From positions 1 to 36,535 of the IMG/VR virus record IMGVR_UViG_3300037423_002450: 36,535 nt of DNA; one strand, written 5' to 3'. This document shows, piece after piece, positions 1-29,034 of the stretch; the first letter of the stretch is position 1, and every line of letters begins with the position of its first letter. This DNA comes from a virus (Duplodnaviria > Caudoviricetes). The position numbers and the translations under genes were made by a program. A model generated the notes under the pieces. That model saw only the letters and a program-made list of their open reading frames with translations. It had not been told where the DNA came from and searched no databases.

Positions 1-10
1 AAGGTCGCAG
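1..10. repeat. Terminal 10-bp direct repeat AAGGTCGCAG (left copy); candidate cos end or circularisation overlap
   Basis: Identical to 36526-36535, which lies 60 nt upstream of the terS start. Confidence 0.8.
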
Positions 11-119
11 CGCCACCCCCTGCTCGCCCATCCCACACTCGACCCCTCGGCCTGCCGAGTTGTCCATAGGGCGACCTCGCCCACCTCGCTGCCGTGCTCG
101 CGCTCGATGCCCACGCCTT

Positions 120-129
120 CGTGCTACCG
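120..129 (-). promoter_or_regulatory. Putative late promoter CGGTAGCACG, copy 1 (reads across the genome ends into terS/terL)
   Basis: Exact motif copy; GTG at 114 lies 5 nt downstream. Confidence 0.75.
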
Positions 130-144
130 ACGAGGGTGCGGTTT

Positions 145-711
145 TCAGCGCACGCCGAGCGCATCCGCGAGTCGGACCGCGTCGGTCGGGTCCATGCCCG
201 CGTCGAGCGCGGCCATGACCGGGTCGTCGCCGTCGGCCAGCGCCCGCACGACGCCGAGCGGGACCTCCATCTCCGCCGCGAGGTCCTCGAGCGCGCGACC
301 GGACACGGGGGTGATGCCGCCTTCCGCCCAGTCCTCGCCGACGTGGTCGCCGCCCCGCTCGTCGCGCAGCGAGGTGCGCTGGACGTGCTGCGGTCGGCAC
401 CGCGCCGACTCGGCCATGTTCCGCGTGATCGAGGACATGGCCATGAAGAGGTAGTTCGACAGGCTGCTGCGGTCGGGGTCGAACCGCGACTTGCCCTTCT
501 GCCGACGCAGCAGGCCCACGATCACGTCCTGGAAGCCGTCATCCTCGTCGATGCCCAGCCACCGCACCCGCACGTTGAAGCGCTTGTAGTAGATGCGCTT
601 CGCCAGCCCGTAGACCTCGGGGTCGTTCAGGTCGAGGCCCTTCGAGGGGGCGAGCGGGAGGCCGACGCTGCCCTGGTCCCGCCGGCTGGTGGAGGTGTCG
701 CGGCGGTTCAT
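145..711 (-). CDS. Phage-encoded sigma70/ECF-like factor (188 aa), probable late sigma
   Basis: Region-2-like segment DDGFQDVIVGLL..RFDPDRSSLSNYLFMAMSSITRN; C-terminal HTH-like LEDLAAEMEVPLGVV; SD GGAGGG before ATG 711. Confidence 0.7.
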   Translation of the reverse strand: MNRRDTSTSRRDQGSVGLPLAPSKGLDLNDPEVYGLAKRIYYKRFNVRVRWLGIDEDDGFQDVIVGLLRRQKGKSRFDPDRSSLSNYLFMAMSSITRNMAESARCRPQHVQRTSLRDERGGDHVGEDWAEGGITPVSGRALEDLAAEMEVPLGVVRALADGDDPVMAALDAGMDPTDAVRLADALGVR

Positions 712-719
712 GGAATTCC

Positions 720-1132
720 CTCCACGGTCCCGTGGTGGTGGCGTAGCACTGATAGACGGCGTCGAAGCACGCCGATTCCTCGGTGGTACGCTGGTGCTAC
801 GCAGTGGTACGCTACTTGCGTAGCACCGATAGACGAGGTTGAAGCGTTGCAGTTCGGCGGCTCCGCGGCGTGGTACGCGCCCGGCAGCACAATGGACCCG
901 TATAGGGACTCTCCCGAGACAGAGGTGGGCCGAGGTCGGCGACATGCCGGCTCTCCTCTCTCTCCACCCGAGGTCCCCCTAAATAGGTGTCCTCGAAACG
1001 CGTCGCGTAGCACGGGAAAATGCGACGAAAGCGACCTTTGAAACTCTACTGTCGGTGCTACGTGCGCGTACCACGGAAACGGCCGCTCGTGCGCCGTTTC
1101 CATAGGTTCAACGCCGATCGTCGGTACTACGC
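720..1132. other. Putative replication origin: about ten GTGSTACGC iterons in both orientations, lower GC
   Basis: Copies at 741, 783, 794, 804, 818, 870, 1005, 1055, 1066, 1124; 18-mer repeat 741-758/818-835; hairpin 1075-1101; directly downstream of the polymerase-helicase gene. Confidence 0.6.
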
Positions 1133-4100
1133 TCATGCGGCGTCCGTGAACAGCCCGCCCGCCTTCTCCAGCTCGGCCGTCACGCGACCCGCCGTCTCGT
1201 CGTCGTAGACGCCCTCGACGAGGTCGACCGCGCGCCGGAGGATGCGGTAGTGCCGCGGCTGCGGAGCCGAGCGCCCCGTGCCCTGCCGCGTCGGGTACGT
1301 CGGCTCGGGCTTGCCCCCCTTCTTCCGGAACCGCTGCAGCCACCCGCGGTCGAGCCACGTGCGGACGATGGCGTCAGCGTCGTACCCTCGCTCCTCGAGG
1401 AGGTCCTTCAGCGCGTTCGGCAGGAAGGCGAGGAAGGGCCAGCCCTCGTCCTTGTCCCAGACCCCGAGCCATCCGCGATAGGGCGCCCGCGTCTCCTGGT
1501 TCTGCGTGTTGCTGTCGTCGAGCTTGACGATGTGGCGGCCGATGAAGGCCATCTGGTTCGCGCAGGCGTGGGCGTAGACCTCGCGGAGCGCCTCGCTCGC
1601 CTTGTCGGCCTTCTCCGCCGAGTGGACGATCGCCTTCCAGAGCTCCCAGAGGGCGTTCGTCTTGCAGCGCGGCACGCCGAGCTCGCGGCAGATGTCCTCG
1701 CAGACCTGCAGGAGCGCGATCGTGGTCAGGCCGCGCCGCACGACTGCGTCGCCGCCGGCGAGCCGCCCCCACTCCTCATGAGCCCCGCGGAACCGCTCCT
1801 TCAGCCACGCGATGCGACCCTCGCCCTGCAGCCACTGGACGAGCCGGGGGCCGAGGTGGCCGTGGTTCTCCAGGAGCGCGAGGGTCACCTGCTCGGCGAG
1901 TTGGCCGCCCTCCGCGCTCTGCCCGCCGAAGGGCGACCCCCAGAGGACGAAGCACCGGGCGTTCGCGCCGCCCGCCTTCGTGTAGGACGTTGCCGGCGCC
2001 TCGCCGGTCGAGAGCAGCACGGAGCGCCACGTGTTCGAGGCCCGGACGCCGTCGACGCTACCGCGCCCGCGACCCTGCCCCTGCGCGAACATGTAGAGCA
2101 CGTTCCCGATGACCGATGCGTCGTGCACCGCCTTCGTGTCGTCGAGGAAGAGCGGGAGGTCGGCGTTGATGTTGGCGTACCGCTCGATGAAGGCCCTCGT
2201 CGCGTTCCACGGCCGGATCAGGCCGTTGTCGCGGTCGTTCGGGTAGCCCCAGACCGACGCGCCGACGCGAAGCACGGTCGTCTTCCCCTGCGAGGTCGAG
2301 CCCGCCCAATCGACCACCGGGTTCCCAACCCCCGGCAGATGCCGGAGCAGCGGGGGGCCCATCGCGGCGAGCACAGCGATCATCGCGGCCGGGTAGCGGC
2401 TGATCTGTTCGATGGCCGCGCACCACCCCTCCCACGTGCCGGAGGTGCGGTACCCGATGACGAACTGTCGAAGCCCCGGGTCGATCTCAGCCATCCGGAC
2501 CGGCGGATCGGCAACGGGACCGTCGACGCCGATGAACGTGGTCCCCCAGGTGAACCCGCCCTCACGCCACCCGAGCACGGTGGTCGTCTTCCGCTTCGGG
2601 AGGTGCGACTCGTTCTCCGCGAGGAAGGCTTCGATGTAGGCGACGACGTCCCGCGCGCTCTCGCTCGAGACTGGGAGCCCGAACTCGGCCTGCTCGGCGA
2701 GGTGGCGGGCGACCTGCGCAACACGTCGCGGGACCTGTCGCGTCTGCCAGCCGCCGGCGCCGTACCACTGCACGAGCAGCGTCTGCGTGCCGTCGTCGAC
2801 GTCGACGTCGACTCCAACGACGAACAGCGGGCGGGTGCAGATCCGCGTGAGCTCCTCCTGGATCTCGCCGCTCGGGAGCTGCCGCACCTTCACGGACCAC
2901 ACGCCCTGCGCGTCGATCGCGTACCGGAACGGCATCCGCAGTGCGCACGGGATGTTCGCCGTCGCCGCGAGCTCGCCGAGCGACTCGGCCACGTCCGGCT
3001 GCGTCTTGAACCGCTCCTCGTTCGCCGCGGCGCGGGCCGCCCTGGCGACGTCGATCAGCGCGCGTGCGCGCCGCTCCACGAGCTTCTGCAGGCGGTCAGC
3101 GGCCCCGGACTCGACGGTGCGGACGCTCTCAATTTCGGAGAGCACCACGACCGCGTCGATGTTGAACGCCTTGGCGAGACCGTCGATCAGCTTCGGCGCG
3201 AACAGCTCCTCCGTGACGGGCTTGCGCAACGCGCGGGTCGGCGCGCCCTTGAGGCGGCCGATGATGAGCTGCAGCGCGCGCACCGCCGCGTCGGCTTCCT
3301 CCTGGCGACGCTCGGCCTCCTCGCCGCCCTCGGAGGGGGCGTCCGTGTCGCCGGGCGGCGGTGGCTCTTCGGGGATCTCGCCCTCACCCCAGCGCCCCCG
3401 GATCTCCGTCTTCACCAGCGCGCCGGGCACGCCGACGGCGGCCATGGCCTCGACCATCAGGCGCGAGGCCGCCTCCGCGACCTGGGCGGCGGCGGAGGCC
3501 GGGGCGTCGAGGAGGAGGCCGTCGAACATCGGCAGCACCAGCCGCGCACCCAGCGAGCCCAGCCGCTCGTCGAATCGCTCGAGCACCCAGTCGAGGGCCT
3601 CGGCCTCGACCGACGACCACTGCGCCGAGAGCCCCGCCAGAGCCCGCCCGCCGGCGACGGGGATCTTCACGACCCGGCCCGTCAGCGTGCGCACCTCGAA
3701 CACGTCGCCGGCGCGCTCCGCCTCGCGCAGGACCGCTCGGATGTACTGCTGCAGGTCGGGGTAGCGGGCCTTCCATGCCTTCACGAAGGCTTCGGCGACC
3801 CGGGCCGGGGCGTCGACGATGCGCGCGAGTTGCTCGCGCACCGTCTTCACGCTGCCGCCGTTGATCTGCGACAGCGCGAGCCGCTTGACCGTCTTCCGGC
3901 CGAGGGCCGGGTCGAGCGAGGGGAGAACCTCTGCGGCGAGGTCCTCGTAGCACCGCCCGCCGGCGAGCCCCTCCTGCAGCGCCGCGTCCCCGCTGCGCAC
4001 GCCCGCGATGGTGAGATGCGCTGCCGAGTAGTCGGCGTCGATGAACCGGCGGCCCTCCTCGGAGGGGCCGATGTGCACCCGGAGCGCGTTCGCGACGGTC

Positions 4101-4330
4101 TGGGGCAGGAAGTGGATGCGCCCGCTCGGCTCGCGGTGCCACGACCCCGCGTGGAGGAGACCATCCCGGCCGACGCTGCGAAGCGAGTCGCGGAAGCCCT
4201 CGTAGCGAGCCCGAGCCTCCGCCCCGCGCTCCTCCGCGACGCGGGCGTACTCGTCGAGCGCCCGCCCCATCGAGGGGAGCACGCGCATCGGGGCGAGCTG
4301 GCAGAGGACCTCGGCGACGTCGGCGCTCAT
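1133..4330 (-). CDS. A-family DNA polymerase domain fused to DUF927/Cch-like helicase (putative primase-helicase, 1065 aa)
   Basis: Pol A motifs A (IDADYSAAH), B (RKTVK..LSQINGG) and C (PMFDGLLLD); C-terminal Walker A GSTSQGKTT and Walker B LFLDD in a DUF927-type context. Confidence 0.8.
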   Translation of the reverse strand: MSADVAEVLCQLAPMRVLPSMGRALDEYARVAEERGAEARARYEGFRDSLRSVGRDGLLHAGSWHREPSGRIHFLPQTVANALRVHIGPSEEGRRFIDADYSAAHLTIAGVRSGDAALQEGLAGGRCYEDLAAEVLPSLDPALGRKTVKRLALSQINGGSVKTVREQLARIVDAPARVAEAFVKAWKARYPDLQQYIRAVLREAERAGDVFEVRTLTGRVVKIPVAGGRALAGLSAQWSSVEAEALDWVLERFDERLGSLGARLVLPMFDGLLLDAPASAAAQVAEAASRLMVEAMAAVGVPGALVKTEIRGRWGEGEIPEEPPPPGDTDAPSEGGEEAERRQEEADAAVRALQLIIGRLKGAPTRALRKPVTEELFAPKLIDGLAKAFNIDAVVVLSEIESVRTVESGAADRLQKLVERRARALIDVARAARAAANEERFKTQPDVAESLGELAATANIPCALRMPFRYAIDAQGVWSVKVRQLPSGEIQEELTRICTRPLFVVGVDVDVDDGTQTLLVQWYGAGGWQTRQVPRRVAQVARHLAEQAEFGLPVSSESARDVVAYIEAFLAENESHLPKRKTTTVLGWREGGFTWGTTFIGVDGPVADPPVRMAEIDPGLRQFVIGYRTSGTWEGWCAAIEQISRYPAAMIAVLAAMGPPLLRHLPGVGNPVVDWAGSTSQGKTTVLRVGASVWGYPNDRDNGLIRPWNATRAFIERYANINADLPLFLDDTKAVHDASVIGNVLYMFAQGQGRGRGSVDGVRASNTWRSVLLSTGEAPATSYTKAGGANARCFVLWGSPFGGQSAEGGQLAEQVTLALLENHGHLGPRLVQWLQGEGRIAWLKERFRGAHEEWGRLAGGDAVVRRGLTTIALLQVCEDICRELGVPRCKTNALWELWKAIVHSAEKADKASEALREVYAHACANQMAFIGRHIVKLDDSNTQNQETRAPYRGWLGVWDKDEGWPFLAFLPNALKDLLEERGYDADAIVRTWLDRGWLQRFRKKGGKPEPTYPTRQGTGRSAPQPRHYRILRRAVDLVEGVYDDETAGRVTAELEKAGGLFTDAA

Positions 4331-4917
4331 CGAGCCCCGCTGAAGGCCCGCCGCACCAGGGCCTCGACGTGGGCGTCAGGCCGCTTCCGCAGAGCGAGGC
4401 GGATCGGGAACCACATGTCCTCGGCCGGCGCGTCGCCGACGACATCGACGACGAAGGGCTTGCCGAGCGCGGCCGCGTACCCGACTTCGGTGAGCGTGCC
4501 GAAGCAGTCCGGAGCGTCGAGGCGAACGTAGACGACGTCCGCGCGGCGGATCTGCCCGAGCGCGTTGTCGAGCACGAGGTCCGGCGTGGGCGCGTCCATC
4601 GCGTTCGAGGCGCCCCCGATGCCGAGCCCGTGGGTGGAGCGCCCGTGGTAGCTCACGTGGCAGTTGCTGCCGTCGATGTACCAGGGCCCGACGTAGACGA
4701 GGCGCACCTCGCCGAGGGGCGCCCCATGCGGGAGGGGCACGTCGTGCTCGAGCTCGCCCCGCCGCACGTAGTTGTCGTAGCTGGCACCGCTGTCGGGGAC
4801 GCCGTCGAAGGCGGGTCGCCAGTCGTTCGGGCCGATCTTGCCCGCGGCGTAGACCCGAACGATGCGGCGATCGTCGAGGGGGTAGAGAGGTCGGAACGCA
4901 GGCGCGAGGACGTTCAT
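4327..4917 (-). CDS. Nucleoside 2-deoxyribosyltransferase-like / nucleotide N-glycosidase protein
   Basis: VYAAG, IRRADVVYV and GTLTEVGYAAALGKP match the NDT family signature; ATGA overlaps on both sides. Confidence 0.75.
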   Translation of the reverse strand: MNVLAPAFRPLYPLDDRRIVRVYAAGKIGPNDWRPAFDGVPDSGASYDNYVRRGELEHDVPLPHGAPLGEVRLVYVGPWYIDGSNCHVSYHGRSTHGLGIGGASNAMDAPTPDLVLDNALGQIRRADVVYVRLDAPDCFGTLTEVGYAAALGKPFVVDVVGDAPAEDMWFPIRLALRKRPDAHVEALVRRAFSGAR

Positions 4918-5309
4918 GTGGAGATCCGGGCGGGGTTGGGCTGGACGCGCCCGATCGGGCGGCCCATGAGGAGGTGCCACTCTTCGTGGCAGGAGCGGCA
5001 GACCTCGACGACGGGCCAACGGTCGGCCTTGTCGCCGAAGAACTCGCGCGGGGCGAGGTGGTGGAGTTCGAGGACGGTGAAGGCGCCGCAGACGGCGCAG
5101 GGCGCGAAGCGGTCGGAGTCGAAGGTCGGGCTCTCGCGCCACGGGAGCGCGCTGACGTCGAACGCGCCCTTCGGCAGCCACGTACGCCGCGGGTCTGCCG
5201 CTGCGTCGCAGGCGTAGCACCAGGCGCTGACATGCACGCCCGTCGGGATCTGCACCTTGCAGACCACGGCCTCGCCGTCGCACCGCGTGCACCGGAAGGT
5301 GGGCGTCAC
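4914..5309 (-). CDS. HNH endonuclease-like Zn-binding protein
   Basis: CAVCG..LELHH..VCRSCHEEWH plus N-terminal CxxC pairs; GTGA overlap at start. Confidence 0.7.
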   Translation of the reverse strand: MTPTFRCTRCDGEAVVCKVQIPTGVHVSAWCYACDAAADPRRTWLPKGAFDVSALPWRESPTFDSDRFAPCAVCGAFTVLELHHLAPREFFGDKADRWPVVEVCRSCHEEWHLLMGRPIGRVQPNPARIST

Positions 5310-5548
5310 GGCAGGAGCCGCTGCGCAAGGGGGTACCTGGCCGGGTCGACGACGACGCGCTGGACGGGCTGCAGGTCGCGCCCGGTGCTCTCGCAGCGGT
5401 GCCCGACGAGGCGCCCGTCGGCGTCGAAGCCCTGCACGCGGACGTGCTCGTCGCCAGCGTGGAAGACGCGGCCGCGGTGGCGATCGTCCACAGGTGCGCC
5501 GGCGGGCGCTGCAGCGACCCGCCGGAAGAGAGGGTGCTGCGCGCTCAA
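5306..5548 (-). CDS. Hypothetical protein (80 aa, TTG start)
   Basis: Fills the operon with start/stop overlaps on both sides. Confidence 0.5.
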   Translation of the reverse strand: MSAQHPLFRRVAAAPAGAPVDDRHRGRVFHAGDEHVRVQGFDADGRLVGHRCESTGRDLQPVQRVVVDPARYPLAQRLLP

Positions 5549-5733
5549 GCAGGCACCCTGAAGAGGCGCCAGCGGTCGACGGGGAGCGCGTGGTCGTCGA
5601 GCACCGCGAGCGCGGTGGGGCCGTCGACGTCCTCGCGGACCTCGTCGTAGGACGCCGCGCACGCGACGCACCGCCCCGCCTCGTCGAGGTGGTCATGGTC
5701 GCAGAAGCGACGCGGGAGGAGTCGGGTGTCCAT
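5545..5733 (-). CDS. Small Cys/His-rich hypothetical protein
   Basis: 62-aa ORF with CxH..CxxC; operon packing. Confidence 0.55.
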   Translation of the reverse strand: MDTRLLPRRFCDHDHLDEAGRCVACAASYDEVREDVDGPTALAVLDDHALPVDRWRLFRVPA

Positions 5734-5736
5734 GGC

Positions 5737-6219
5737 CTACCCGACCATCCGCGGCTTCGCCTCGACGTCCGCCCGGAGCTGCGCGAGCCGCTGCATCGCG
5801 GCGTCGATCTCGGCGAGGATGCCCGCGCGTTCGCCGTTCGTGAGCGCCGCCCCGCCCTCGCTCTTCGGGTCGGTCGCCGTCGCGACGGAATCCGCGAGCT
5901 GCCCGGTCGCGCGGGTGACCGCCGCGGCGACGCGCAGAAGGTCGCGCCCGCCCGCCTCACCCTCGGGCGCCTTCACGACGACGAAGCCGGCGATGGACGC
6001 GAGCTCGCCGAGCAGCGGCGTCGCGTCGTCCAGCTTCCGGATCAGCCGCGCGAGCACCCACACGGGCATCGACCGCTCGCCGGCGCGCCACCGCGGCACG
6101 TTCGACTTCTCCACGCCGGCCCAGTGGGCGATCTGCGCGTCGGTCAGGTGCGGGTAGGCGAGTCGGAGGTCGTCGAGGATGCGGCGCGAGGTGCCGTCGT
6201 CGGGGATGGGGCTGGGCAT
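5737..6219 (-). CDS. CII-like HTH regulatory protein
   Basis: HTH LTDAQIAHWAGVEKSNVPRWRAGER; helical C-terminus; downstream of cro; SD GGAG. Confidence 0.6.
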   Translation of the reverse strand: MPSPIPDDGTSRRILDDLRLAYPHLTDAQIAHWAGVEKSNVPRWRAGERSMPVWVLARLIRKLDDATPLLGELASIAGFVVVKAPEGEAGGRDLLRVAAAVTRATGQLADSVATATDPKSEGGAALTNGERAGILAEIDAAMQRLAQLRADVEAKPRMVG

Positions 6220-6259: not shown

Positions 6260-6466
6260 TGACAAGCGGGCGTGCGAGGTTGGAAACACACCGGAGCAAT
6301 GACGATGGGTTCGAACGGACGGACAAGGAGCGTTCCGCTGGCGACGTGGATCGCGGCGGTCGAGGTGCTCGAGGTGGAGGAGGTGCCGGCCCGTCAGCGG
6401 GGGCCGCTCCGCGTCGTCGACCCGCGCCTCGGTGGTGGTGGCCGAGGCGCTTGGTCGTCTGTCAAC

Positions 6467-6760
6467 TCAGGCGGCCGGGCGGAGCTCCGGACGGGGGTTC
6501 GGGCCGAGGATCTCGTCGTCGGCCGCGAGCTTCAGGGCGTGGATGCGCTCCCAGCCGGTGATCGACAGGACGTCGAGGAGCGCCACGAAGTGGCCGAGCG
6601 TGGGCGCCCGGCCGTGCTGCCAGTCGGGGTTGAACCAGCGGGAGACGGTCGCGACCGTGACGTCGACGTCGCGCGCGACGAGGCGCCGCTGCACGTCGGT
6701 GATAGACCAGCCGAGGCGCTCCCGGCGCTCGGAGAGGAAGAGGGCAAGCGAACGCTGCAC
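6467..6760 (-). CDS. Cro-like XRE HTH protein 1
   Basis: Small HTH (WSITDVQRRL..VTVATVSRW..PTL), divergent from repressor 1. Confidence 0.75.
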   Translation of the reverse strand: MQRSLALFLSERRERLGWSITDVQRRLVARDVDVTVATVSRWFNPDWQHGRAPTLGHFVALLDVLSITGWERIHALKLAADDEILGPNPRPELRPAA

Positions 6761-6763
6761 GTC

Positions 6764-6830
6764 GTCACCTCGCAGGCGACAGTGTCACCCGGAAGGTCAC
6801 ACCCTGTCAAGGGGTCGCCTGCGAGGTACG
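6764..6830. promoter_or_regulatory. Three 17-bp operator-like sites and a leftward TTGACA -35 (switch 1)
   Basis: GTCACC-N5-GGCGAC (6764), GTCACC-N5-GGTCAC (6784), GTCGCC-N5-GGTACG (6814); TTGACA on minus at 6805-6810. Confidence 0.65.
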
Positions 6831-6838
6831 TGGGCGCG

Positions 6839-7747
6839 ATGCCGCTCACGAGCGAGATCGGGTCACTACTACGTCGGGTCCGCGAGGACGCCGGACTCAC
6901 CCGCTCCGAGCTCTCCCGCCGGCTCGGCATCACCCTCACGCAGGTCTCCCGCATCGAGAGCGGTGAGCGTCAGCCGCCTCTCGACACGCTCGAAGCATGG
7001 GCGAACGCCTGCGACAGGTCGGTCCTGCTCGCGTTCCGACGCCCCGACGCCATGCCTGCGGGTGAGCACGAGGCCCTCGTCCAGGACATCATGAACATGC
7101 TCGGCGCCCTGACCAGGTCAGAGGTCGAGGTCGTCCACAAGTGCGTCGAGTCGATGCCGGAAAGTTCGGCGGAAGAGCGAGAGGAACTCCTCGCCCACCT
7201 GCGGAACATCCAGAACGCGAACGCGCTGGCCTGCAAGCAGCGGATGGACCTCATCACCGGAATCGACGACATCGACGAGGCGCTCGCCCGTGCCGAGAAC
7301 GCGATGGCTGCCGACGAAGTAGCCCTCGCCCGCTTGCGGGTGGACGCGGAGGCGACGTCAGGCAGCGCCCGGCGGGGCATCGAACTGGCCATGGAAAGCG
7401 TGCTCGGGTCGCTGCGAGAGAGCGCCGAGTACATCGAGCTTCTGAAGCGATTCCGGCGCCCCAAGGCCCTTCAAGAGATCGAGGTGGCCGTCCGCGAGGC
7501 CGACCAGGCAACGCACGCCGCGGCCGAAGCCCTTGCCGCGGCCGAGCACGAACTACGGCTCTTCGCCAGCACCGAGAGCACCATGCCGCAGCTCGAGTGG
7601 AGCGACGAGTTGCAGCGCCTCAACGGGCGCTATCGCGAGGCGCTCGCCGCGTGGGAGGCCGCCGAGCAGCGGCTCTGGCGCCTACAGCAGGAGAAGAAGG
7701 ACGCGGCCGAGGCCCCCCAGCCCCCAGCACGGTCGGGGCTGCCGTGA
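6839..7747 (+). CDS. CI-like XRE repressor 1 with long coiled-coil C-terminus (302 aa)
   Basis: N-terminal HTH LLRRVREDAGLTRSELSRRLGITLTQVSRIESGERQP. Confidence 0.8.
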   Translation: MPLTSEIGSLLRRVREDAGLTRSELSRRLGITLTQVSRIESGERQPPLDTLEAWANACDRSVLLAFRRPDAMPAGEHEALVQDIMNMLGALTRSEVEVVHKCVESMPESSAEEREELLAHLRNIQNANALACKQRMDLITGIDDIDEALARAENAMAADEVALARLRVDAEATSGSARRGIELAMESVLGSLRESAEYIELLKRFRRPKALQEIEVAVREADQATHAAAEALAAAEHELRLFASTESTMPQLEWSDELQRLNGRYREALAAWEAAEQRLWRLQQEKKDAAEAPQPPARSGLP

Positions 7748-7808
7748 CGGCCGCGCGGCCTCATCGCGACGTGCAGGCAAGATCGTGGATGAACGGGTGC
7801 CTGATGGC

Positions 7809-8078
7809 CTACGCCGCCCGGGTCCTCGTGATGTCCTCGACCCGCGAGCGCGCCAACTCGAGGCCGCGCAGTCGCTCCTCCGGCGACAGCCCGAGCGCCT
7901 CGACGAGCACGGCGTACTGGCCGAGCGTGGGGACACGGTTGAACCGCTCGGACTCCCAGAAGCGGAGGCTCGCCTCGGTGATGCCGGTGACCTCGGGAGC
8001 GACCTCCGCACACCGTCGGGCGAGCCCTCGACGAGAGGTCGTGCCGCGAGCGGCCGAGAGGAAGGCGCCGAACCGCAT
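7809..8078 (-). CDS. Cro-like XRE HTH protein 2 (paralog of 6467-6760)
   Basis: Shares R.PTLG....L...L.....ER...L.LA with Cro-1; divergent from repressor 2. Confidence 0.75.
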   Translation of the reverse strand: MRFGAFLSAARGTTSRRGLARRCAEVAPEVTGITEASLRFWESERFNRVPTLGQYAVLVEALGLSPEERLRGLELARSRVEDITRTRAA

Positions 8079-8123
8079 GGCTGAATCCTACACGCGTCTT
8101 GCAGGTACGCAAGGAAGTGATGC

Positions 8124-8936
8124 ATGGCCACGTCGCTGAAGGAGAAGAACGAGGAGCGAAGCCAGCGGTTCGAGCCGGTGATCGCGCGGGTCCGGCAGCT
8201 CCACGAGGACGCGATCGCGGCGGCCGAGCGAGAGCGGCAGGTGGAGTACGGCGAGGTCTGGCGCGCGGAGCGCACGCGGCCCGTGGATCGCCGTCGGATC
8301 GACCAGGCGCATGAGCAGCTCGCGCAGGCGCAGAAGGAGACGCTCGACCGCTACGCGGTCGCGAAGGACACGGCGGTGCACCTCGTCGAGTCGTTGAGCA
8401 ACGACCCTATGCATGACCACATCTTCGCGACGGCCTTCTCTCTCCTGCAGATCGTGCTCTCGGAGGAGCGCGAGCACGTCAGCCGAATCCGCGGTGCGTC
8501 GGCCGACGTGGAACTGCCCCCCGTGGGGCCGCTGCTGCGCGCGATGCGCATCCACGCGTACCGTCAGCCGACGGTCGGGTACTCGCTTCGCGAGCTCGGC
8601 GCGATCCTCGGACGGAGCGAGGGGGCGCTCCGGCACATCGAGTCCGGGCGCAACGAGCCACCATTCGACTTGGTCGCCCAGTGGGCCACCGCCTGCGGGA
8701 TGCGTCTCGACCTTCGCTTCGAGTCCACGGCATGGGGCGGCGAGGACATCAACCTCATCGAGATCCGGAAGCTCGTGTCGCTGCTCCCGGAGGACGGGCG
8801 GAGGACGATCCGAAACCTCGCGGACGCGTGGAGCAAGATGCCCGACGCGATTCGATGGGACCTCGAGAGGCGCGCCATGGACTACCTCGCAGACGCCCCA
8901 TGGCTGAACAGGCGGGAGGAGGATGACAACGAATAG
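8124..8936 (+). CDS. CI-like XRE repressor 2 with N-terminal helical extension
   Basis: Internal HTH LLRAMR..SLRELGAILGRSEGALRHIESGRNEPPFDLVAQWATAC, similar to repressor 1. Confidence 0.75.
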   Translation: MATSLKEKNEERSQRFEPVIARVRQLHEDAIAAAERERQVEYGEVWRAERTRPVDRRRIDQAHEQLAQAQKETLDRYAVAKDTAVHLVESLSNDPMHDHIFATAFSLLQIVLSEEREHVSRIRGASADVELPPVGPLLRAMRIHAYRQPTVGYSLRELGAILGRSEGALRHIESGRNEPPFDLVAQWATACGMRLDLRFESTAWGGEDINLIEIRKLVSLLPEDGRRTIRNLADAWSKMPDAIRWDLERRAMDYLADAPWLNRREEDDNE

Positions 8937-19868: not shown

Positions 19869-19878
19869 CGTGCTACCG
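19869..19878 (-). promoter_or_regulatory. Putative late promoter CGGTAGCACG (leaderless)
   Basis: Exactly 5 nt before GTG 19863. Confidence 0.8.
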
Positions 19879-19888
19879 ACGGACCCTA

Positions 19889-20317
19889 CTACGGGCTGCT
19901 GTCCTCCCCTGCGGGGCCTACGCCGCAGGCGTCTCGACAGTCCACGAACAGGTAGTCCCCAGCCTCCCCCCACGACTCCCCGTCGTAGTAGGCGTCTCGA
20001 TACATGGCGAGCGCGTCGTCGCACGTGCGCACCGCACGCAGTTCCGCAAGGCAGGCCGCGGCCGCGTCGGCGTCGAACTCGCACGGGTCCATCAGCGCCT
20101 CGGCAGCGCTCACGATCTCGCCGCGGTCGTACTCGGGTTCGAGGTCCACGCCTGCGTCCAGGAGGGTGCCATCGCACGTGTTGAGGGCGTTCGCCTCGTA
20201 GCGAATCGCGGGATCGCCGTTCAACGTCTCGATTCTGTATGCCTGGACGGCGAACTCGCGTGGGAAGCTGTCGGCTGTCGGCGTGCAGCCCGCAAGCAGA
20301 GCGAGGAGGAGCAGCAT
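19889..20317 (-). CDS. Cys-rich lipoprotein, moron-like insertion in the tail module
   Basis: MLLLLALLAGC lipobox; GGAGG 9 nt upstream; frame open back to ATG 20548. Confidence 0.65.
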   Translation of the reverse strand: MLLLLALLAGCTPTADSFPREFAVQAYRIETLNGDPAIRYEANALNTCDGTLLDAGVDLEPEYDRGEIVSAAEALMDPCEFDADAAAACLAELRAVRTCDDALAMYRDAYYDGESWGEAGDYLFVDCRDACGVGPAGEDSSP

Positions 20318-20547
20318 GTTCGGCATCCTCCCATGAACGCCCGGGCGGTCAAGGGCTTCAGCCGCGGCGGCCCTCACACGCCGGGTGGCGTGGCGGATCG
20401 CGCGGTCGAGCTGCGCCGCGAGCGCCTTCGCCTGCGCTTCGGTGACCGGCGGGATGCGCGCGATCTCGCGCCGGAAGAACTCGACGTCGCAGTGCTCGGT
20501 CATGCGCACGGTCCCGTCGGGCAGCACCTCGTCGATCGTCCAGTACA

Positions 20548-23500
20548 TCAGACCTCCTCCTCGAGCCGGACCTGCCCGATGCGCAGGATCTCGTCCTTCC
20601 CCTCGCCGCCCTGGACGTTGTCGACGCGCACGGTCTCGGAGAGGACGCGCCCGTAGACGAACATGCGCCGGTCGGTGAGCGTCACGACCGCGCTCCCCGA
20701 GCTGGGCACGCTGATCGCCCCGACGTAGACCACGGGCGTGGTTGCGCCGTGGATGCTGTCGAGCAGGCCGGGCAGGCTCCACGGCATGTCGGCCGGGACG
20801 GCGACGGCGCCACCGGACGTCCAGCCCAAGATCCAGTTCGGCGACGAGAGCGCGAGCGGGGACGTCTCCACGCCGTCGACCCACGAGACCTCGACGGCGC
20901 GCCGAGCCGGCCCGAGCGCGCGGACGTTGCGGATGCCCGTGCGGCCCTCGGTCACCTCGAAGTCGTACGCCCACTCGAGCCCGCGCCCCCACGCGGTCTC
21001 CATGAGGTAGCTGCCCGTGGGGAAGAAGGCGCCGAAGACGAGCGCGCCCAGCTCGAAGTAGCCCTCGGCGGTCGTGTGCGCGGGGATGACGAGCTTCCAC
21101 CGCTTGTAGGTCGCCGTCATCGGCACGATCGCGAGCGCGTCCTTGATCCAGAGGGCCGCCCCGGTGCCGCTCGTCGCCTCCGTGCCGTCGACCTCCTCGA
21201 GGAGGATGCGCGTCTGCAGGGACGAGGAGCCGGACTCCCACTTCCCCGCCGAGTTCGTCTCGATCTTCCGCACCGCCGGCGCAGGCTCGCCGCCGCTCGT
21301 GACGAGCTCGAGGCGGCTCCCGGCGAGGATGTTCGTCGGCAGGTAGTAGGACACGCTCGACCCGCCCGTCGTGTCGGGACGGACCACGCGTCCGTTGCGC
21401 GTCCACTTCAGGTTGACCTGGGCGCGCAGGTCGATGTCCCCCACCTTCGTCCAGATGCCCGCGCCGTTCTGCCCCCAGAGTTCGCACTGCGGGAAGTTCG
21501 CGTCGCCGAGGTAGATGCCGACGAGGGCACCCATGGGGACCGTCGCCTCGTCGCCGAGCTCCCACGCGATCTCGACGTTGCTCGCGTCGGTCGTGCTCCG
21601 CCACCGGCGCCGCGGGCTCGGCGCGACGTCCGGGAAGACGTTCTCCACCCCGTAGTCGTAGACGGGGTCGATGTTCCAGTCCTCGTTCCGGAAGGTCGGC
21701 CCGTCGACCGCGCGGATCGACGTGCCGCCGTCGACGTAGATCGGCTCCGCCGTGTAGCAGCGGCCGAGCAGGTCCGAGTAATTGTCCTGCCCGTAGAGGT
21801 GCTCCTCGGTGTACGCGCCGTGGCTGAAGCACGCCATCGTCGAGTACGACGCGCTGCTGTCGAACTGGCCGAAGCGGAGGCGGTGGCCGACCACCGTGGT
21901 GGACCCGCGGTCGGTGAGCGCCGCCGTCGCGCCCACCTCTGTCCAGTCGCGATCGCCCGAGGCGCCGACCGGGCGGTACCACATCCGCGCCTTGCCGCTG
22001 TAGACGTCGACGAGGATCTGGACCTTCCCGTCGACGCCGGCGGTCGTCGGGACGCTGTCGACGTCGAGGCCGGAGACCGAGTCGTGGAGCGCGATCGACG
22101 CCGCGTTGACCAGGCAGGCGATCTCGTACTCCACGGAGACGCCGTCGTTCACGATGATCTCGGCCCGCCACTGGTTCGTGACGAGCTGGCACTCGAACAG
22201 CGCCGTGACGCCCTGCGCGAGCGTGCCGGTGATGTTCGCGTACGTCCGCATCTCGGTCTGCCCCACCCCGGTGGTGAGGTGGAGACCGTCGCTCGTGAGC
22301 GCCGAGGTGCCCGTCGACGTCGCCGACCACCCCGAGACGTTCGCGGGGTCGTCGTAGGGGAGCCACGTCACCGTGAAGCCCGCGACCGTGTTCGGCCCGA
22401 TCGCGGTGCTCGTCTCCTGCGCGAGACAGACCGTCGTGTACCCGCCGAGCCAGAAGCCCGCGAGGCTGTCGTCCGCGGTGCCCGGGTTGGCGGCGAAGCG
22501 GTGCGCGACGAAGGCGCGGCCGCGGTGCGCGCAGACCGCGAAGTCGTACGGGTAGGTCGCCGTGTCGCCGCCGATCCACGTGCTCACGCCGGCCGAGGGC
22601 GCGGGCCCGCCGCCGAGGTCCGCCCACGTGGCGCCGCGGTCGTACGACGCGCGGACGCTCGCCTCGAAGGTCGTCGACGCGTGGTCCCGGCCCATCACGT
22701 AGACGACGCCGTCCTCGTCGACCCACATCGCGAGGTCGCCCGAGTTGAAGACGCCGCCCGACTCAGTCGCCCACTCCATCACGTCGGCGTCGGTCTGCAG
22801 GTCGCCCGAGTTCGCGTCGCTGATCGCCTGGAACGCGCTCGCCAGTTCGCGCCACGCCGGCGGGTAGCTCGAGCCCGTCGTCGCGAAGTTGGTCACGTAC
22901 CCGACGAGGATCTTCCCGTCGGTGACGACGGCGTCCGGGTACCCGCGGTTGTGGCCGGTGAGCGCGTCGACGTAGTCGAAGGTCGCGCCGAGGTCGTTGC
23001 TCGCGTACTGCCAGATCTGATCCTCGGGCGTGGCGATGTCGCGCACGTGCACGAAGAGGGCGAGCTGGTCGTTCAGCTCGACGACGCGCCTCCGGAGGGG
23101 GAGCTGCGCCGTCGCGTCCAACGCGGTGTCGAGGCAGCCCTTCTGCGCCGGGAGCCATGTCGTGCCCGCGTCGTCGCTGTAGTAGGTGCGGAGCTGCACG
23201 CTCGTGCCGTTCTCCGTCCAGAAGAGGCAGAGGAGCCGCCCGCTCGTGAGCTGGACGAGGCACGGGTAGGGCTCCGTGTACGAGAGCGCCGCGCCCGGGT
23301 CGTAGACCTCGTGCAGGGTCCACGTGCCGGTGCTCGGGTCCCGCGTCCACACGACCGTCTTCTGCGTGTCCTCGCCGACCGCGACGGCGATCGTGCCGTC
23401 GGAGAGCGTGAGCGCGTGCGGGTGCTTCCACTTCCCCGCCGTGTTCGAGTGCCCGACGAACTCGAACCCCGTCAGCGACGCGGGTGGGTCCCAGCCCCGC

Positions 23501-23778
23501 CAGTGCTCGGCGCCGTCGCCCTCGTACTTCCAGACGAGCCGGGCCTGGTCGATGCCGGGGTGCCCGCCGCGGATCGTCTTCACCCGGAGCTGGGCCGAGC
23601 TCGCCTGCGAGCCGCTCGCCTCGAGCACCATCTCCGTGTCCTGCTGCGCCTCGGGGACGCCCGGGCGCGAGCCGGCCTGCGTGAGGGTCGAGCTCGCCGA
23701 CGCGTACGCCGCCCACTTGAAGCGCGGGTCGGGGACGAGGAGACCGCGGAGGACGCTGGGGGTGGTGCCGCTGCCCAT
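20548..23778 (-). CDS. Large tail protein with Asp-box (BNR) beta-propeller (1076 aa)
   Basis: SDDAGTTW, SNDLGATF, SYDRGATW; follows the tape measure gene. Confidence 0.7.
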   Translation of the reverse strand: MGSGTTPSVLRGLLVPDPRFKWAAYASASSTLTQAGSRPGVPEAQQDTEMVLEASGSQASSAQLRVKTIRGGHPGIDQARLVWKYEGDGAEHWRGWDPPASLTGFEFVGHSNTAGKWKHPHALTLSDGTIAVAVGEDTQKTVVWTRDPSTGTWTLHEVYDPGAALSYTEPYPCLVQLTSGRLLCLFWTENGTSVQLRTYYSDDAGTTWLPAQKGCLDTALDATAQLPLRRRVVELNDQLALFVHVRDIATPEDQIWQYASNDLGATFDYVDALTGHNRGYPDAVVTDGKILVGYVTNFATTGSSYPPAWRELASAFQAISDANSGDLQTDADVMEWATESGGVFNSGDLAMWVDEDGVVYVMGRDHASTTFEASVRASYDRGATWADLGGGPAPSAGVSTWIGGDTATYPYDFAVCAHRGRAFVAHRFAANPGTADDSLAGFWLGGYTTVCLAQETSTAIGPNTVAGFTVTWLPYDDPANVSGWSATSTGTSALTSDGLHLTTGVGQTEMRTYANITGTLAQGVTALFECQLVTNQWRAEIIVNDGVSVEYEIACLVNAASIALHDSVSGLDVDSVPTTAGVDGKVQILVDVYSGKARMWYRPVGASGDRDWTEVGATAALTDRGSTTVVGHRLRFGQFDSSASYSTMACFSHGAYTEEHLYGQDNYSDLLGRCYTAEPIYVDGGTSIRAVDGPTFRNEDWNIDPVYDYGVENVFPDVAPSPRRRWRSTTDASNVEIAWELGDEATVPMGALVGIYLGDANFPQCELWGQNGAGIWTKVGDIDLRAQVNLKWTRNGRVVRPDTTGGSSVSYYLPTNILAGSRLELVTSGGEPAPAVRKIETNSAGKWESGSSSLQTRILLEEVDGTEATSGTGAALWIKDALAIVPMTATYKRWKLVIPAHTTAEGYFELGALVFGAFFPTGSYLMETAWGRGLEWAYDFEVTEGRTGIRNVRALGPARRAVEVSWVDGVETSPLALSSPNWILGWTSGGAVAVPADMPWSLPGLLDSIHGATTPVVYVGAISVPSSGSAVVTLTDRRMFVYGRVLSETVRVDNVQGGEGKDEILRIGQVRLEEEV

Positions 23779-23783
23779 GCGTC

Positions 23784-23793
23784 CGTGCTACCG
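23784..23793 (-). promoter_or_regulatory. Putative late promoter CGGTAGCACG (leaderless)
   Basis: Exactly 5 nt before ATG 23778. Confidence 0.8.
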
Positions 23794-23804
23794 ACCGAGG
23801 CCCG

Positions 23805-26006
23805 TCACGCCCGGTTCGATCGGTGCCCGGCCTGCTTGCCCTCGGCGATCGCCTTCGAGATCGGGTCGCCCATCAGCAGTCCGTCTGCCTTCCACCGCTG
23901 GACCTGCCGCGTGTGCCGGTACACGGACACGGCGACGACGGTGCCGCCGGAGGGGCTCACCCCGGCGTTCGCGCGGCGGAGGTCCTCGTCGCCGAACATG
24001 CCGCGCCCGGTCGGGTTCAGCATGAACTCGTGCGACCGCGCCGTGACGTTCATCTCGTCGGGCGCGAGGTCGATCGGACCGCCGATGTGGAAGGACGGGT
24101 TCTCTGCCGCGATGGCGCCGAGCTGCGTCGCGCCCGCTGCGGCGGCGATGCCCGCGAAGGCCGCGCCGACGATCGGCCCGGCCGGGCCGCCGGTCTGCAG
24201 GCCGTCGTTCCACGCCGCCACGATCGACGAGGCCAGGTTGATCGCGGCCTCGGCCATGCGCGCGCGCTTCGACGCGGCGAACGCCTTCGCGGCCGCCTTC
24301 CGCTGGGCGTCGATCCGCTCCTGCAGCTCCTTCTTCTGGGCGGCCGTGTAGTACGCGTCGCCCGCGACGAGCTGCTGCTGGAGGCGGTCGGCCGCGTCCT
24401 CGGCGTGGTTGTAGGTCGCCTCGTAGGCCGACGCGATCTGGTCGAGGCCCCGGCTCGTGTAGCCGGCGACCTTCATCGCCGTGTCCTCGGCCTGCTTGAT
24501 CTGCAGCTTCGCCGCGCGCGCGGCGTAGGCCGCCTGGATGGCGGCCGCGTCCTTCGCGATCTGCGACTCGTCGAGGTGCGCGGCCTTGGCGGCGTCGAGG
24601 TACTCCCGGAGCGCGCGCTCCTTGTCGACGGCGAGCTGCTCGTACGCGGTGCGCTCGTTGGCCGTGCTCGCGGTGACCAGGTCCTCGGCCTTCTGCACGG
24701 CCGCGCGCCGGGCGTCCGCCTCCGCGTCGAGGCCCTTCTCCAGCTCCGCCCGGGCGCGCGCGCGGAGCTCGGCCATGTCCTTCTCGGTGGCCTGGTCGAT
24801 CTTCCCCGCGGCGAGGAGCGCCTCGGCCCACTCGTCGATCTTCGCGATCGTCTTGTCGTACTCAGCCTGCGCTTTCGACTGCGCGGCCTCGCTTTCGATG
24901 AGCGCGGCCGCGATCTCCTCGCGCGCGCGCTTCGCGGCGTCGAGGATCTTCTGCTGCTCGGCGGCGACCTTCGACTCGTTCTTCAGGGCCTCGGTCGCCT
25001 TCTCGGTCGTGGCGATGTGGTCGCGCCCCTTCCGGATGAGGTCGTCGAGCGTGTCGGCGAGGCCCGAGGCGTCGTAGGCCGTCCCCGCCATCGAGGAGCC
25101 CCACTCGACCACCGCGTCGGTGATCGTCTTCGGCGCCGTGCCGAGCGCGTCGACGGCGTGGTCGATGGACGCGCGCGCGGTCTCGAACGAGTCGGGGAGC
25201 TTCGCGCCGGTGTAGTCGGCGACCGCCTCGATCCCGTGGAGCATCGCGTCCAGCGGGATCAGGGGCGTCTCGAGCGCGCCTGCGAGCGGGCCGACGAGGA
25301 GCTGGATGAGCGACCCGATGCCGACCGTGGCGAAGTCCTTCAGGAGGTTCCGCCCCTTCGCCCACTTCTCGAACCACGCCTCCGCGGTGAGCGCGGCGCC
25401 GACCACGGCGTCGGTGAGCTTCTCGACGGTGGGCGCGACGTTCGCGCCGACGGTCACGACGAAGCGGTCGAAGATCGCGTCGATCGCGGTGCCCGAGGCC
25501 GCGAGCGCGTCGAGGCTCTTCTGCGTCTCCTTCGGCACCGCCGGGTAGAAGTCGCTCCCGATGTCCTTGAAGCCGCGGAGCTTCTTCTGCGCGTCGGCCG
25601 CGGCGAAGCCCGCCTCGACGAGGCCCGCGGTGAGCGCGCCCATGGCGAGCGTCGTCCCCGCGACCGTCGCGCCGGCGCCCGCGAGCCCGGCCACGAACAC
25701 GGTCACCGGGTCGACGAGCGCACCCACGGCCTGCCCGAGCGCGCTCGCCTTCTCCGTCATCTCGCCGAAGCCCGCCGCCTTGGCGCCCTTCTCGAGGAAC
25801 GTGAAGGTGCTCGTCCACTCGCCCTTCGTCTGCTTGGCTGCGTCGCGCGCGGACTTCTCGGCCCGCTTCATCTGGCGGTCGAGCTGGCCGACGAGCGTCC
25901 GCGCCTCCTTCCCGCCGATGTCCGGGACCTTGGCGAGCTCGGCCCGGAACGCGTCGAGCTTCGCGACCCACTCGACGCCCACGACCTCGTTGCTTCCGCC
26001 CGGCAT
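23805..26006 (-). CDS. Tail tape measure protein
   Basis: Ala-rich helical 733 aa with hydrophobic stretches and C-terminal FHIGG..E..LN motif. Confidence 0.8.
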   Translation of the reverse strand: MPGGSNEVVGVEWVAKLDAFRAELAKVPDIGGKEARTLVGQLDRQMKRAEKSARDAAKQTKGEWTSTFTFLEKGAKAAGFGEMTEKASALGQAVGALVDPVTVFVAGLAGAGATVAGTTLAMGALTAGLVEAGFAAADAQKKLRGFKDIGSDFYPAVPKETQKSLDALAASGTAIDAIFDRFVVTVGANVAPTVEKLTDAVVGAALTAEAWFEKWAKGRNLLKDFATVGIGSLIQLLVGPLAGALETPLIPLDAMLHGIEAVADYTGAKLPDSFETARASIDHAVDALGTAPKTITDAVVEWGSSMAGTAYDASGLADTLDDLIRKGRDHIATTEKATEALKNESKVAAEQQKILDAAKRAREEIAAALIESEAAQSKAQAEYDKTIAKIDEWAEALLAAGKIDQATEKDMAELRARARAELEKGLDAEADARRAAVQKAEDLVTASTANERTAYEQLAVDKERALREYLDAAKAAHLDESQIAKDAAAIQAAYAARAAKLQIKQAEDTAMKVAGYTSRGLDQIASAYEATYNHAEDAADRLQQQLVAGDAYYTAAQKKELQERIDAQRKAAAKAFAASKRARMAEAAINLASSIVAAWNDGLQTGGPAGPIVGAAFAGIAAAAGATQLGAIAAENPSFHIGGPIDLAPDEMNVTARSHEFMLNPTGRGMFGDEDLRRANAGVSPSGGTVVAVSVYRHTRQVQRWKADGLLMGDPISKAIAEGKQAGHRSNRA

Positions 26007-26698: not shown

Positions 26699-26703
26699 CG
26701 GCC

Positions 26704-26713
26704 CGTGCTACCG
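26704..26713 (-). promoter_or_regulatory. Putative late promoter CGGTAGCACG (leaderless); its TAG is also the stop of the frameshifted chaperone
   Basis: Exactly 5 nt before ATG 26698. Confidence 0.8.
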
Positions 26714-27261: not shown

Positions 27262-27290
27262 GGAGCGTCCTCTCTACGAAGCGGGGCGGA

Positions 27291-27818: not shown

Positions 27819-27841
27819 GGGGAAGCCTCGGGAGTCGCCGT

Positions 27842-27851
27842 CGTGCTACCG
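27842..27851 (-). promoter_or_regulatory. Putative late promoter CGGTAGCACG (leadered)
   Basis: 23 nt before the tail tube ATG, with SD GAGG in between. Confidence 0.8.
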
Positions 27852-27863
27852 GCGGGCGCGGGC

Positions 27864-29029: not shown

Positions 29030-29034
29030 GCCGC

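Follow-up and report, generated by a model that had tools for sequence, protein, structure and literature searches.

We identified a single gene that joins a minimal family A DNA polymerase (PolA) core to a DUF927/Cch-type helicase in a 36,535-nt stretch of phage DNA (the whole stretch analysed, hereafter the window). This fused gene is probably the phage's one-gene replication initiator, in which the PolA core would prime in the place of an ordinary primase. The priming reading draws on the displacement of an archaeo-eukaryotic primase (AEP) domain, iterons downstream of the gene, a short last thumb helix, fusions of sister cores to primase-partnered helicases and the lack of any other primase in the window. 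The record carries an integrase, and the element is a temperate tailed soil phage, likely of Myxococcota.

The fused gene and its polymerase core

The start codon of the fused gene overlaps the stop codon of the preceding nucleoside 2-deoxyribosyltransferase-like gene (ATGA), to which it is translationally coupled (Table 1). In the encoded protein, Pfam detected DNA_pol_A at aa 82-314 (E 3.9e-11, above cut-off), DUF927 at aa 471-761 (E 1.4e-35) and Cch HTH_56 at aa 950-1004 (E 2e-4, below cut-off), with no match to an exonuclease domain. Its best solved-structure relatives were SaPIbov1 Rep (8TCH, E 2.8e-29), Cch (5DGK) and Taq polymerase. An independent contig (run X5) matched positions 2852-3728, bridging the fusion, without difference, and positions 1-5853 were matched equally by one contig of run X2, which is possibly the source. 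Misassembly therefore does not account for the fusion. GC3 across the three parts of the gene was 0.95, 0.95 and 0.94. A sequence-only reading had described an exonuclease-less Pol A core, a linker and a DUF927 helicase, an architecture that Pfam, AlphaFold2 and the independent contig confirmed.

Table 1. Features of the fused gene and its surroundings in the window
Feature	Position	Strand	Basis or detail
Sigma-70 region-2-like gene, downstream	145..711	(-)	TIGR02937, E 5e-6, below cut-off
Likely replication origin	742..1131	no strand	Repeat clusters and low GC
Fused replication gene: minimal PolA core + DUF927/Cch-type helicase	1133..4330	(-)	1065 aa
DUF927 + AAA+ helicase + Cch-type winged helix	1319..2920	(-)	Pfam, conservation, structure
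All-helical N-domain of helicase module, about aa 337-457	2960..3322	(-)	Model
Pro/acidic flexible linker, about aa 316-336	3323..3385	(-)	pLDDT <50 at 321-334
Minimal family A polymerase core, aa 1-315	3386..4330	(-)	Two-helix thumb and motif residues
Nucleoside 2-deoxyribosyltransferase-like gene	4327..4917	(-)	Weak Pfam PF05014, E 1.2e-5, below cut-off

The AlphaFold2 model of residues 1-319 (pLDDT 96.1) has a complete PolA fold, disposing of the earlier concern that the N-terminal domain might lack one. It matched Aquifex Pol I and Klenow with VIA Z scores of 25.6 and 25.5 over 303-307 residues, compared with Z 15.0 for T7 RNA polymerase (RNAP). Key core residues are the hairpin R71, motif A D100/H105, motif B R145/K149/L153/N157, helix-Q E242 and motif C D270. 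Aligned with DYSQIE, YG and HDE of Klenow, the motifs read D100-Y-S-A-A-H105, K149...N157-G and F269-D270-G271, exactly as first reported from the sequence, and both catalytic Asp residues are present. D100 is kept in 100/101 and D270 in 99/101 family cores (the misses being gaps), K149 in 101/101, and R71 and E242 also persist across these 101 divergent cores. The motif changes relative to Pol I are real, but they are not private to this protein: they are family signatures common to TV-Pol-like proteins.

In Pol I, the Glu710/Tyr766 pair holds fidelity; most family members have His/Asn instead. A conserved bulky His (H105) stands in place of the motif A gate Glu, and the helix-Q Glu (E242) occurs in 101/101 family cores versus 0/63. 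Given this large His and the new invariant Glu, the earlier suggestion that the core could use rNTPs is unsafe, being neither backed nor excluded, and dNTP or mixed use appears as likely as rNTP use. An equivalence of E242 with T7 RNAP D787 was unconfirmed by profile comparison (only 0.2%) and by the literature searched; H784 of T7 RNAP we take to correspond to Q849.

The last thumb helix appears from sequence to be shorter than that of Pol I, as in CCPol and T7 RNAP, where shortening has been linked to de novo initiation (PMC7581432, PMC10061031). The R71-R84 spacing, measured on the sequence rather than on superposed coordinates, is 13 here, 16 or 18 in 66/88 family cores and 22 in 38/55 canonical cores. 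However, 14/55 canonical cores have a spacing of ≤19, which counts against the thumb argument for priming. Compared with canonical bacterial Pol I, the fused protein lacks the exonuclease domains (scores far below cut-offs), E710/Y766 and the full thumb. Alignment of divPolA2 with the family was not convincing at motifs B and C.

Helicase module, candidate origin and neighbouring genes

The helicase module conserves Walker A G682-K683, Walker B D730, E777 and R792, and matched the SaPIbov1 Rep/Cch fold (Foldseek E 2e-24, TM 0.77 on target). The model indicates a DUF927-AAA+-winged-helix fold with intact Walker A/B motifs and Arg finger. Its N-domain is common to standalone and AEP-fused relatives and has no OB fold in the model; domain comparison and the model revealed no OB fold, zinc finger or PriCT bundle in the fused protein as a whole. 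Similarity to AEP-fused helicases starts at the linker (aa 321-365).

Within the first 400 bp past the stop codon, CGTAGCAC is present in 11 copies within one mismatch (5 exact), in both orientations and in two clusters that flank a ∼130-bp spacer. The count of 11 in the window compares with at most 7 in 50 shuffles. The 300 bp poorest in GC in the whole window also lie here (61% vs ∼71%), with modest AT-richness at the centre (52-55% GC at 980-1069). SaPI origins share this build, with iterons directly after the gene (PMC9371898). In agreement, all DUF927 relatives with enough flanking sequence (15/15) have an element-specific 8-mer cluster directly past the stop codon that exceeds all 20 Markov shuffles.

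The fused gene is the only replication gene between a cII-like gene and the sigma-like gene, which, judged by its sequence, is likely a late-gene regulator that ends the replication region. No other primase was found among 43 ORFs by Pfam or 30 by PHROGs, and four home-built AEP/Toprim profiles run over all six frames returned none (their best score, E 0.022, fell on the repressor ORF). The earlier remark that no other primase was recognisable therefore holds for the window, which was the scope of the search and belongs to a record rated 66% complete. An 80-aa beta-rich ORF (5306-5548), considered as a candidate MP-like SSB (a protein that binds single-stranded DNA), had no Atlas match.

Relatives of the helicase and of the core

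In 4/5 best helicase relatives, at 43-53% identity, the N-terminus is the AEP Prim-Pol domain PF09250. For the further 119 relatives listed, the precomputed Pfam column gave 7 with PF09250, 7 with DUF3854, 1 with Toprim/CHC2, 1 with AEP-TOTE and none with PolA. By these domain orders, the PolA core occupies the AEP Prim-Pol position of the closest helicase relatives. About 85/119 listed relatives (590-750 aa) lack a fused primase, and home-built AEP/Toprim profiles detected no primase in 16 genome loci of unfused relatives. This helicase lineage can thus apparently do without a primase of its own. A decayed AEP on a DUF927 helicase beside a family gene (locus L075) was considered and found unsupported (E 0.024-0.07).

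The core belongs to a family in which 44/85 members exceed 430 aa, with a helicase-like domain in 38 of these 44: DUF927 (1), DnaB (3), RepA (2), VapE (7), D5 (4), CyRepA1-like (10), unnamed P-loop (9) and degenerate SF2-like (2), the last three classes resting partly on home-built profiles. The D5 fusions among sister cores include L108, P0048 and P0113. Within a 7-protein clade containing the fused protein (UFBoot 89), DUF927, RepA and DnaB fusions occur together with standalone forms. One Myxococcota class contributed 22 loci, of which 19 show a helicase-like domain (11 fused, 8 next door) and 3 are truncated by contig ends. Close relatives of the core were absent from viral contigs and from GTDB contigs compared with the polymerase alignment, and INPHARED phages and PLSDB plasmids contained only canonical PolA. 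Longer PolA fusions, sought in proteins of 1587-4530 aa only, gave a single Pol theta-like match, and further PolA-DUF927 fusions may exist. Atlas neighbours of the core are unnamed clusters, some from Nucleocytoviricota, which we note as a lead only.

Genes of this kind are already described. TV-Pols (Iyer 2008, PMC2579912) are minimal PolA cores fused to D5 helicases, as in Sputnik V13 (PMC2579912, PMC3671162); they are predicted to prime and proposed to displace AEP prim-pols (PMC2579912, PMC3671162). The fused protein likewise has a minimal nuclease-less core with a two-helix thumb, hairpin Arg, two palm Asp residues and fingers RxxxK, without a fused exonuclease, and the core lies N-terminal to a helicase on a mobile element or virus, although this helicase is DUF927 and not D5. 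The TV-Pol-like protein MAP_030 of Ma-LMM01 and two Polaromonas plasmid proteins carry D-x4-H, Q-x2-E and x-D-G, as does the family. In contrast to TV-Pols, the fused protein has no N-terminal helical TV-Pol domain, and its host element is a temperate tailed phage whose origin is SaPI-like. Size and transposase context suggest that MAP_030 is the Ma-LMM01 TV-Pol; MAP_178 was set aside because it is the replicative polymerase of that phage. Profile-profile comparison of the family with MAP_030 and four others, stand-ins rather than the published set, gave 96.4% (E 1e-9), and three stand-ins formed its sister on a long branch (UFBoot 92; MAP_030 left out for gaps). Even so, the family profile scores 170 bits on Klenow versus 7.8 bits on MAP_030, placing the core far nearer Pol I. 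No TV-Pol-like genes were found in 44 genomes searched. The myxobacterial radiation of the PolA-core family, the DUF927 partner and the relocated acidic residue are new.

In the literature searched, CCPol-MP alone among PolA-type DNA primases has been demonstrated experimentally, and CCPol alone is primer-dependent, needing the OB-fold protein MP (PMC7581432). The SCCmec CCPol-MP-Cch2 system resembles the fused protein in its PolA catalytic domain, self-loading helicase, downstream origin and short last thumb helix. However, CCPol keeps E710, F762 and part of the exonuclease domain, where the fused protein has H105, L153 and N157, and it is a separate chain working with MP, whereas the fused protein is one chain without MP. 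The hallmark of CCPol-MP/PolA-SSB systems, a separate gene for an OB-fold SSB that lies between those for the polymerase and the helicase, is missing here, where the model shows an all-helical intervening domain. The helicases that accompany intact CCPols are of the D5 type, and DUF927-linked examples are RRM-only and judged inactive (PMC10061031). SaPIbov1 Rep/Cch (8TCH, 5DGK; PMC9371898) shares the fold, the ATPase motifs and iterons right after the gene, in both orientations around an AT-richer centre, but it has either a stand-alone primase, Pri, or none, rather than a fused PolA core. AEP- or Toprim-fused DUF927 primase-helicases (PMC4889955; P0180, P0182, P0183, P0185) have the same helicase module behind an unrelated N-terminal catalytic fold and a helical bundle that the fused protein lacks.

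Role of the polymerase core

The single-chain PolA-type primase-helicase first suggested from the sequence gained from AEP displacement, iterons, the short thumb helix and sister fusions, while priming itself stays a prediction. Its counter-example is L070 (= P0033), a standalone member with the H/N/E signature in the same operon as a Zn-finger-Toprim-RepA primase-helicase, where another enzyme may prime. This neighbour, together with the inability of CCPol alone to prime and the lack of an OB fold here, speaks against priming and for a primer-dependent polymerase tethered to the helicase, acting in strand displacement or gap filling on primers from host DnaG or origin-crossing transcripts. 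Such an enzyme would also fit the absence of an accessory template-binding domain, the many helicase relatives without fused primase and a fold nearer Pol I (Z 25) than T7 RNAP (Z 15). We nevertheless regard it as rather unlikely: the core sits in the AEP position of its nearest relatives, a Toprim/AEP primase was detected in only 1/19 helicase-linked family loci, the thumb helix is short and no proofreading domain was found in 75 family proteins scanned, which is poor for a replicase.

Near-constant linkage to primase-partnered helicase types, and not to repair genes, makes it improbable that an active core has another role, such as extension of a template-poor or terminal-transferase-like kind, bypass of lesions, or second-strand or end repair in excision and integration, even with the His/Asn fidelity-pair change and with an integrase or serine recombinase adjoining 8 family loci. 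A promoter-specific single-subunit RNA polymerase for late genes was suggested by GGTAGCACG, which has 11 copies (0.18 expected), each on the minus strand and immediately ahead of late genes, and has 7 bases (GTAGCAC core) in common with the origin repeat. This role is very improbable, as the core has no promoter-binding N-terminal domain and a profile-comparison probability of 0.2% with T7 RNAP, the sigma-like gene adjoins, and sister cores are found on elements without late genes. Equally hard to credit is a catalytically dead relic serving as a scaffold: three motifs differ from Pol I, but both catalytic Asp residues, K149, R71 and E242 are kept across the family and the fold is complete.

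If the core primes, as we favour, the DUF927-AAA+-winged-helix part would, by homology with SaPIbov1 Rep and Cch, form a hexamer that binds the CGTA(G/C)CAC repeats at 742-1131, melts the spacer and moves 3′-5′. Tethered by the flexible linker, the PolA core would receive the unwound single strand, with the helicase providing the template holding that MP provides for CCPol. The shortened thumb helix may leave room for the triphosphate of the first nucleotide, and joining of the first two nucleotides would fall to D100/D270. Because the thumb is small and an exonuclease is lacking, the products would be short primers or short DNA tracts, leaving bulk synthesis to host Pol III.

TV-Pol priming was predicted in 2008 and, in the literature searched, demonstrated for no system but the atypical CCPol-MP pair, in which the Pol I gate is retained and a partner is required (PMC7581432). 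Here, enzyme, helicase and probable origin lie within 3.6 kb, so a single construct suffices to check the prediction, and the near relatives that carry a fused AEP offer natural controls. If true, a 315-aa self-priming PolA core would be useful for primer-free amplification. More tentatively, and with considerable doubt, the fused protein could represent a third self-sufficient replicative primase class, derived from Pol I and without an SSB partner, that swaps freely with AEP/Toprim domains on at least 7 helicase types, has a His gate with the active-site Glu relocated from motif A to helix Q, synthesises primers of RNA or mixed composition and is an extant intermediate linking Pol I with T7-like RNA polymerases. 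The exchange of the gate for His and a helix-Q Glu poses a sharp structure-function question about sugar selection and chain initiation by PolA enzymes.

The fused gene and its phage

The replication gene is a single minus-strand ORF encoding 1065 aa, as the sequence-only reading had described, and Pfam gives no exonuclease domain in its product, which agrees with the bare PolA core proposed there. A model of residues 1–319, built from a 60-sequence alignment (pLDDT 96.1), is predicted by structure comparison to form a complete PolA polymerase domain, through Z scores of 25.5–25.6 to Klenow and Aquifex Pol I and 15.0 to T7 RNA polymerase. In the model of residues 320–1065 (pLDDT 92.0), a disordered linker is followed by an all-helical N-domain and a helicase fold, and Foldseek matches this model to SaPIbov1 Rep and Cch (E 2e-24 and 1e-22), in support of the proposed helicase module. 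Across 76 aligned sequences there is no variation at Walker A K683, Walker B D730 or E777, and almost none at R792. The polymerase–helicase junction is spanned, with zero differences, by a contig from a run that carries no possible-source flag.

Genes for an integrase, repressor/Cro-like and cII-like proteins, an endolysin, a tape measure and a tail fibre indicate a temperate tailed phage, present in soil and rhizosphere metagenomes (6 in all, of which 4 may be the source). Since Myxococcota account for 6/16 genome loci bearing the nearest helicases, the host is likely a myxobacterium. The fused gene is the sole replication gene between the cII-like and sigma-like genes, and a six-frame scan of the window gave no AEP or Toprim primase, so that the earlier failure to recognise another primase holds. 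It is translationally coupled to a nucleoside 2-deoxyribosyltransferase-like gene, whose product may change nucleotide pools; a small Cys-rich ORF upstream has an HNH-like motif and no family match, and two divergent repressor/Cro-like HTH pairs lie in tandem at 6272–8936. Contigs from two runs end exactly at position 1 and from two others exactly at 36535; the record, rated 66% complete, may be nearer complete than this estimate, or these ends may be branch points.

Coordinates of features in the window, the fused protein (aa) and related loci
Feature	Position	Strand	Remark
Fused gene	1133-4330	minus	one ORF
DNA_pol_A	aa 82-314		Pfam
DUF927	aa 471-761		Pfam
Cch winged helix	aa 950-1004		Pfam, weak
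Sigma-like gene	145-711		
2-Deoxyribosyltransferase-like gene	4327-4917	minus	
Cys-rich ORF	4914-5305	minus	
HTH pair 1	6467-6760 / ~6839-7747		repressor/Cro-like
HTH pair 2	7809-8078 / 8124-8936		repressor/Cro-like
GGTAGCACG sites	121-128 and 19870-34340	minus	11 sites
TV-Pol-type candidates	L028 5287-6792; L119 37-1653; L006 10747-12267; L120 1451-3304		
Phe-gate sub-branch	L075 4251-14000; L106		

The polymerase core and its active site

A full HMMER scan yielded a family of ~310-aa PolA cores, and we aligned 164 cores (147 from the scan, 13 from genomes and 4 TV-Pol-like). Glu stands at position 242 (Klenow A852) in 101 of them, and in these the gate position, 105 (Klenow E710), is never Glu/Asp (His 74, Gln 16, Phe 8); in the remaining 63, residue 105 is always Glu/Asp and residue 242 never Glu. 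Asn occupies position 157 (Klenow Y766) in 72/101. As the 105/242 split follows two clades, it reflects one evolutionary event rather than many. The altered motifs reported earlier are real and are an old family signature; the alignment suggests that the active-site carboxylate was relocated from 105 to 242 rather than lost. The proposed rNTP use does not follow, because the gate Glu is replaced by His, which is not small, unlike the Gly that opens the gate in the engineered variants Taq E615G and Klenow E710G (accessible text of PMC9533422). In one sub-branch the gate residue is Phe, and Gly/Cys takes the place of Tyr766.

The TV-Pol definition covers minimal PolA cores carried by mobile elements, with a D5 helicase attached in some of them, e.g. 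Sputnik V13 (Iyer 2008, PMC2579912, accessible text), and TVpol–helicase fusions are described as numerous (Yutin 2013, PMC3671162, likewise). TV-Pol-like stand-ins have D-x4-H, Q-x2-E and x-D-G in common with the family cores, align with them at 96.4% probability and are sister to them in the tree (UFBoot 92, on a long branch), making TV-Pol membership of the fused protein's core likely, not proven. Membership with CCPol-MP fails on MP and on the gate residues. Some Polaromonas plasmid proteins, and some from phages of Microcystis and Vibrio, also look TV-Pol-type; their annotation reads ‘Clp protease N-terminal domain’ or ‘hypothetical’.

Of 85 family cores from the scan, 41 are ≤430 aa (standalone or fragments) and 44 longer, and in 38/44 a helicase-like domain precedes or follows the core: by Pfam DnaB (3), RepA/AAA_25 (2), VapE (7) and D5/DUF5906 (4); CyRepA1-like (10; 4 by NCBIfam below cut-off, others by our own profile); and unnamed P-loop (9) and degenerate SF2-like (2) domains, two classes weakly named since their profiles were built from these very proteins. 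DUF927 occurs once among these cores, in the fused protein itself. Its clade mixes DUF927, RepA, DnaB and standalone forms. In one Myxococcota class 23/182 genomes match at E 1e-47, a few being canonical PolA. A large sister group on integrative elements of myxobacteria-like genomes carries the core C-terminal to a CyRepA1-like SF2 helicase (P0019, P0020, P0025, P0030; L073, L104, L118). The literature covered, with subscription journals, figures and most supplements outside its scope, describes no PolA-core–DUF927 fusion or His/Glu swap; both are absent from the accessible text of Czernecki 2023, Yutin 2024 and Kazlauskas 2016, and that of Rice 2023 (PMC10061031) lists DUF927 only beside RRM-only, probably inactive proteins.

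Priming or tethered synthesis

We favour, with reasonable though incomplete confidence, a reading in which a TV-Pol-type primase(-polymerase) is joined to a self-loading helicase of SaPI/Cch type that has an origin of its own. An AEP Prim-Pol is N-terminal in 4/5 best relatives of residues 440–1010, and the fused protein resembles such AEP-fused forms from residues 321–365 onward, i.e. from the linker, so the PolA core occupies the place that a primase has in these nearest relatives. TV-Pol was predicted to be a prim-pol by the same displacement argument (Iyer 2008, in the text accessible), and dNTP priming was shown for CCPol-MP, with no other TV-Pol characterised as stated in the available part of that paper (Bebel 2020, PMC7581432). 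Between the hairpin Arg and the Arg that precedes motif A, the fused protein has a stretch of 13 residues, against 16 or 18 in 66/88 family cores and 22 in 38/55 canonical cores; this matches the shortened thumb helix, a feature connected with de novo initiation in accessible parts of Bebel 2020 and Rice 2023.

That the core is instead a tethered, primer-dependent polymerase appears unlikely. What counts most against a role purely as primase is locus L070, where a family gene lies upstream of a Zn-finger–Toprim–RepA protein; at L074 the neighbour's N-terminal 450 aa lack annotation and could hide another primase. The comparison of helicase relatives covers 120 of 125 matches, with only the 7993 best candidates scored; precomputed domains in the other 119 relatives among the matches listed gave Prim-Pol 7, DUF3854 7, Toprim 1, AEP-TOTE 1 and PolA 0. 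The majority of relatives among these matches are standalone helicases of 590–750 aa, and home-built profiles found no AEP/Toprim in their 16 loci, which weakens the claim that the helicase needs its own primase. Across 22 family loci a helicase-like gene is fused in 11 and adjoining in 8 (3 are cut off), and an integrase or serine recombinase lies near 8. At L075 the family gene directly follows a DUF927 helicase encoded on its own, a split parallel of the fused gene, and its position between this helicase and a large serine recombinase is SCC-like.

Probable origin repeats and significance

SaPI origins have 6–12 iterons directly downstream of rep, opposed around an AT-rich centre and bound by the winged helix (PMC9371898). 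The 420 bp past the fused gene's stop are the window's lowest-GC part and hold CGTAGCAC in 5 exact and 6–7 one-mismatch copies, in both orientations; 0/1000 Markov controls reached 5 exact copies. In 15/15 helicase relatives whose flank is long enough, a cluster of an 8-mer particular to each lies directly past the stop, above all 20 shuffles each, by a margin of only 1 copy in 4/15. GGTAGCACG occurs 11 times (0.18 expected), always on the minus strand and a short way ahead of late-gene starts, with 6 nt to the ATG/GTG in 6 cases; it looks like a per-gene late promoter for leaderless transcripts and may be recognised by the sigma-like protein. Because GTAGCAC is common to both motifs, some origin-repeat copies may be regulatory.

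The fused gene offers a clean, compact test of the 2008 TV-Pol priming prediction, and the apparent relocation of its active-site acid is the other part of its value.
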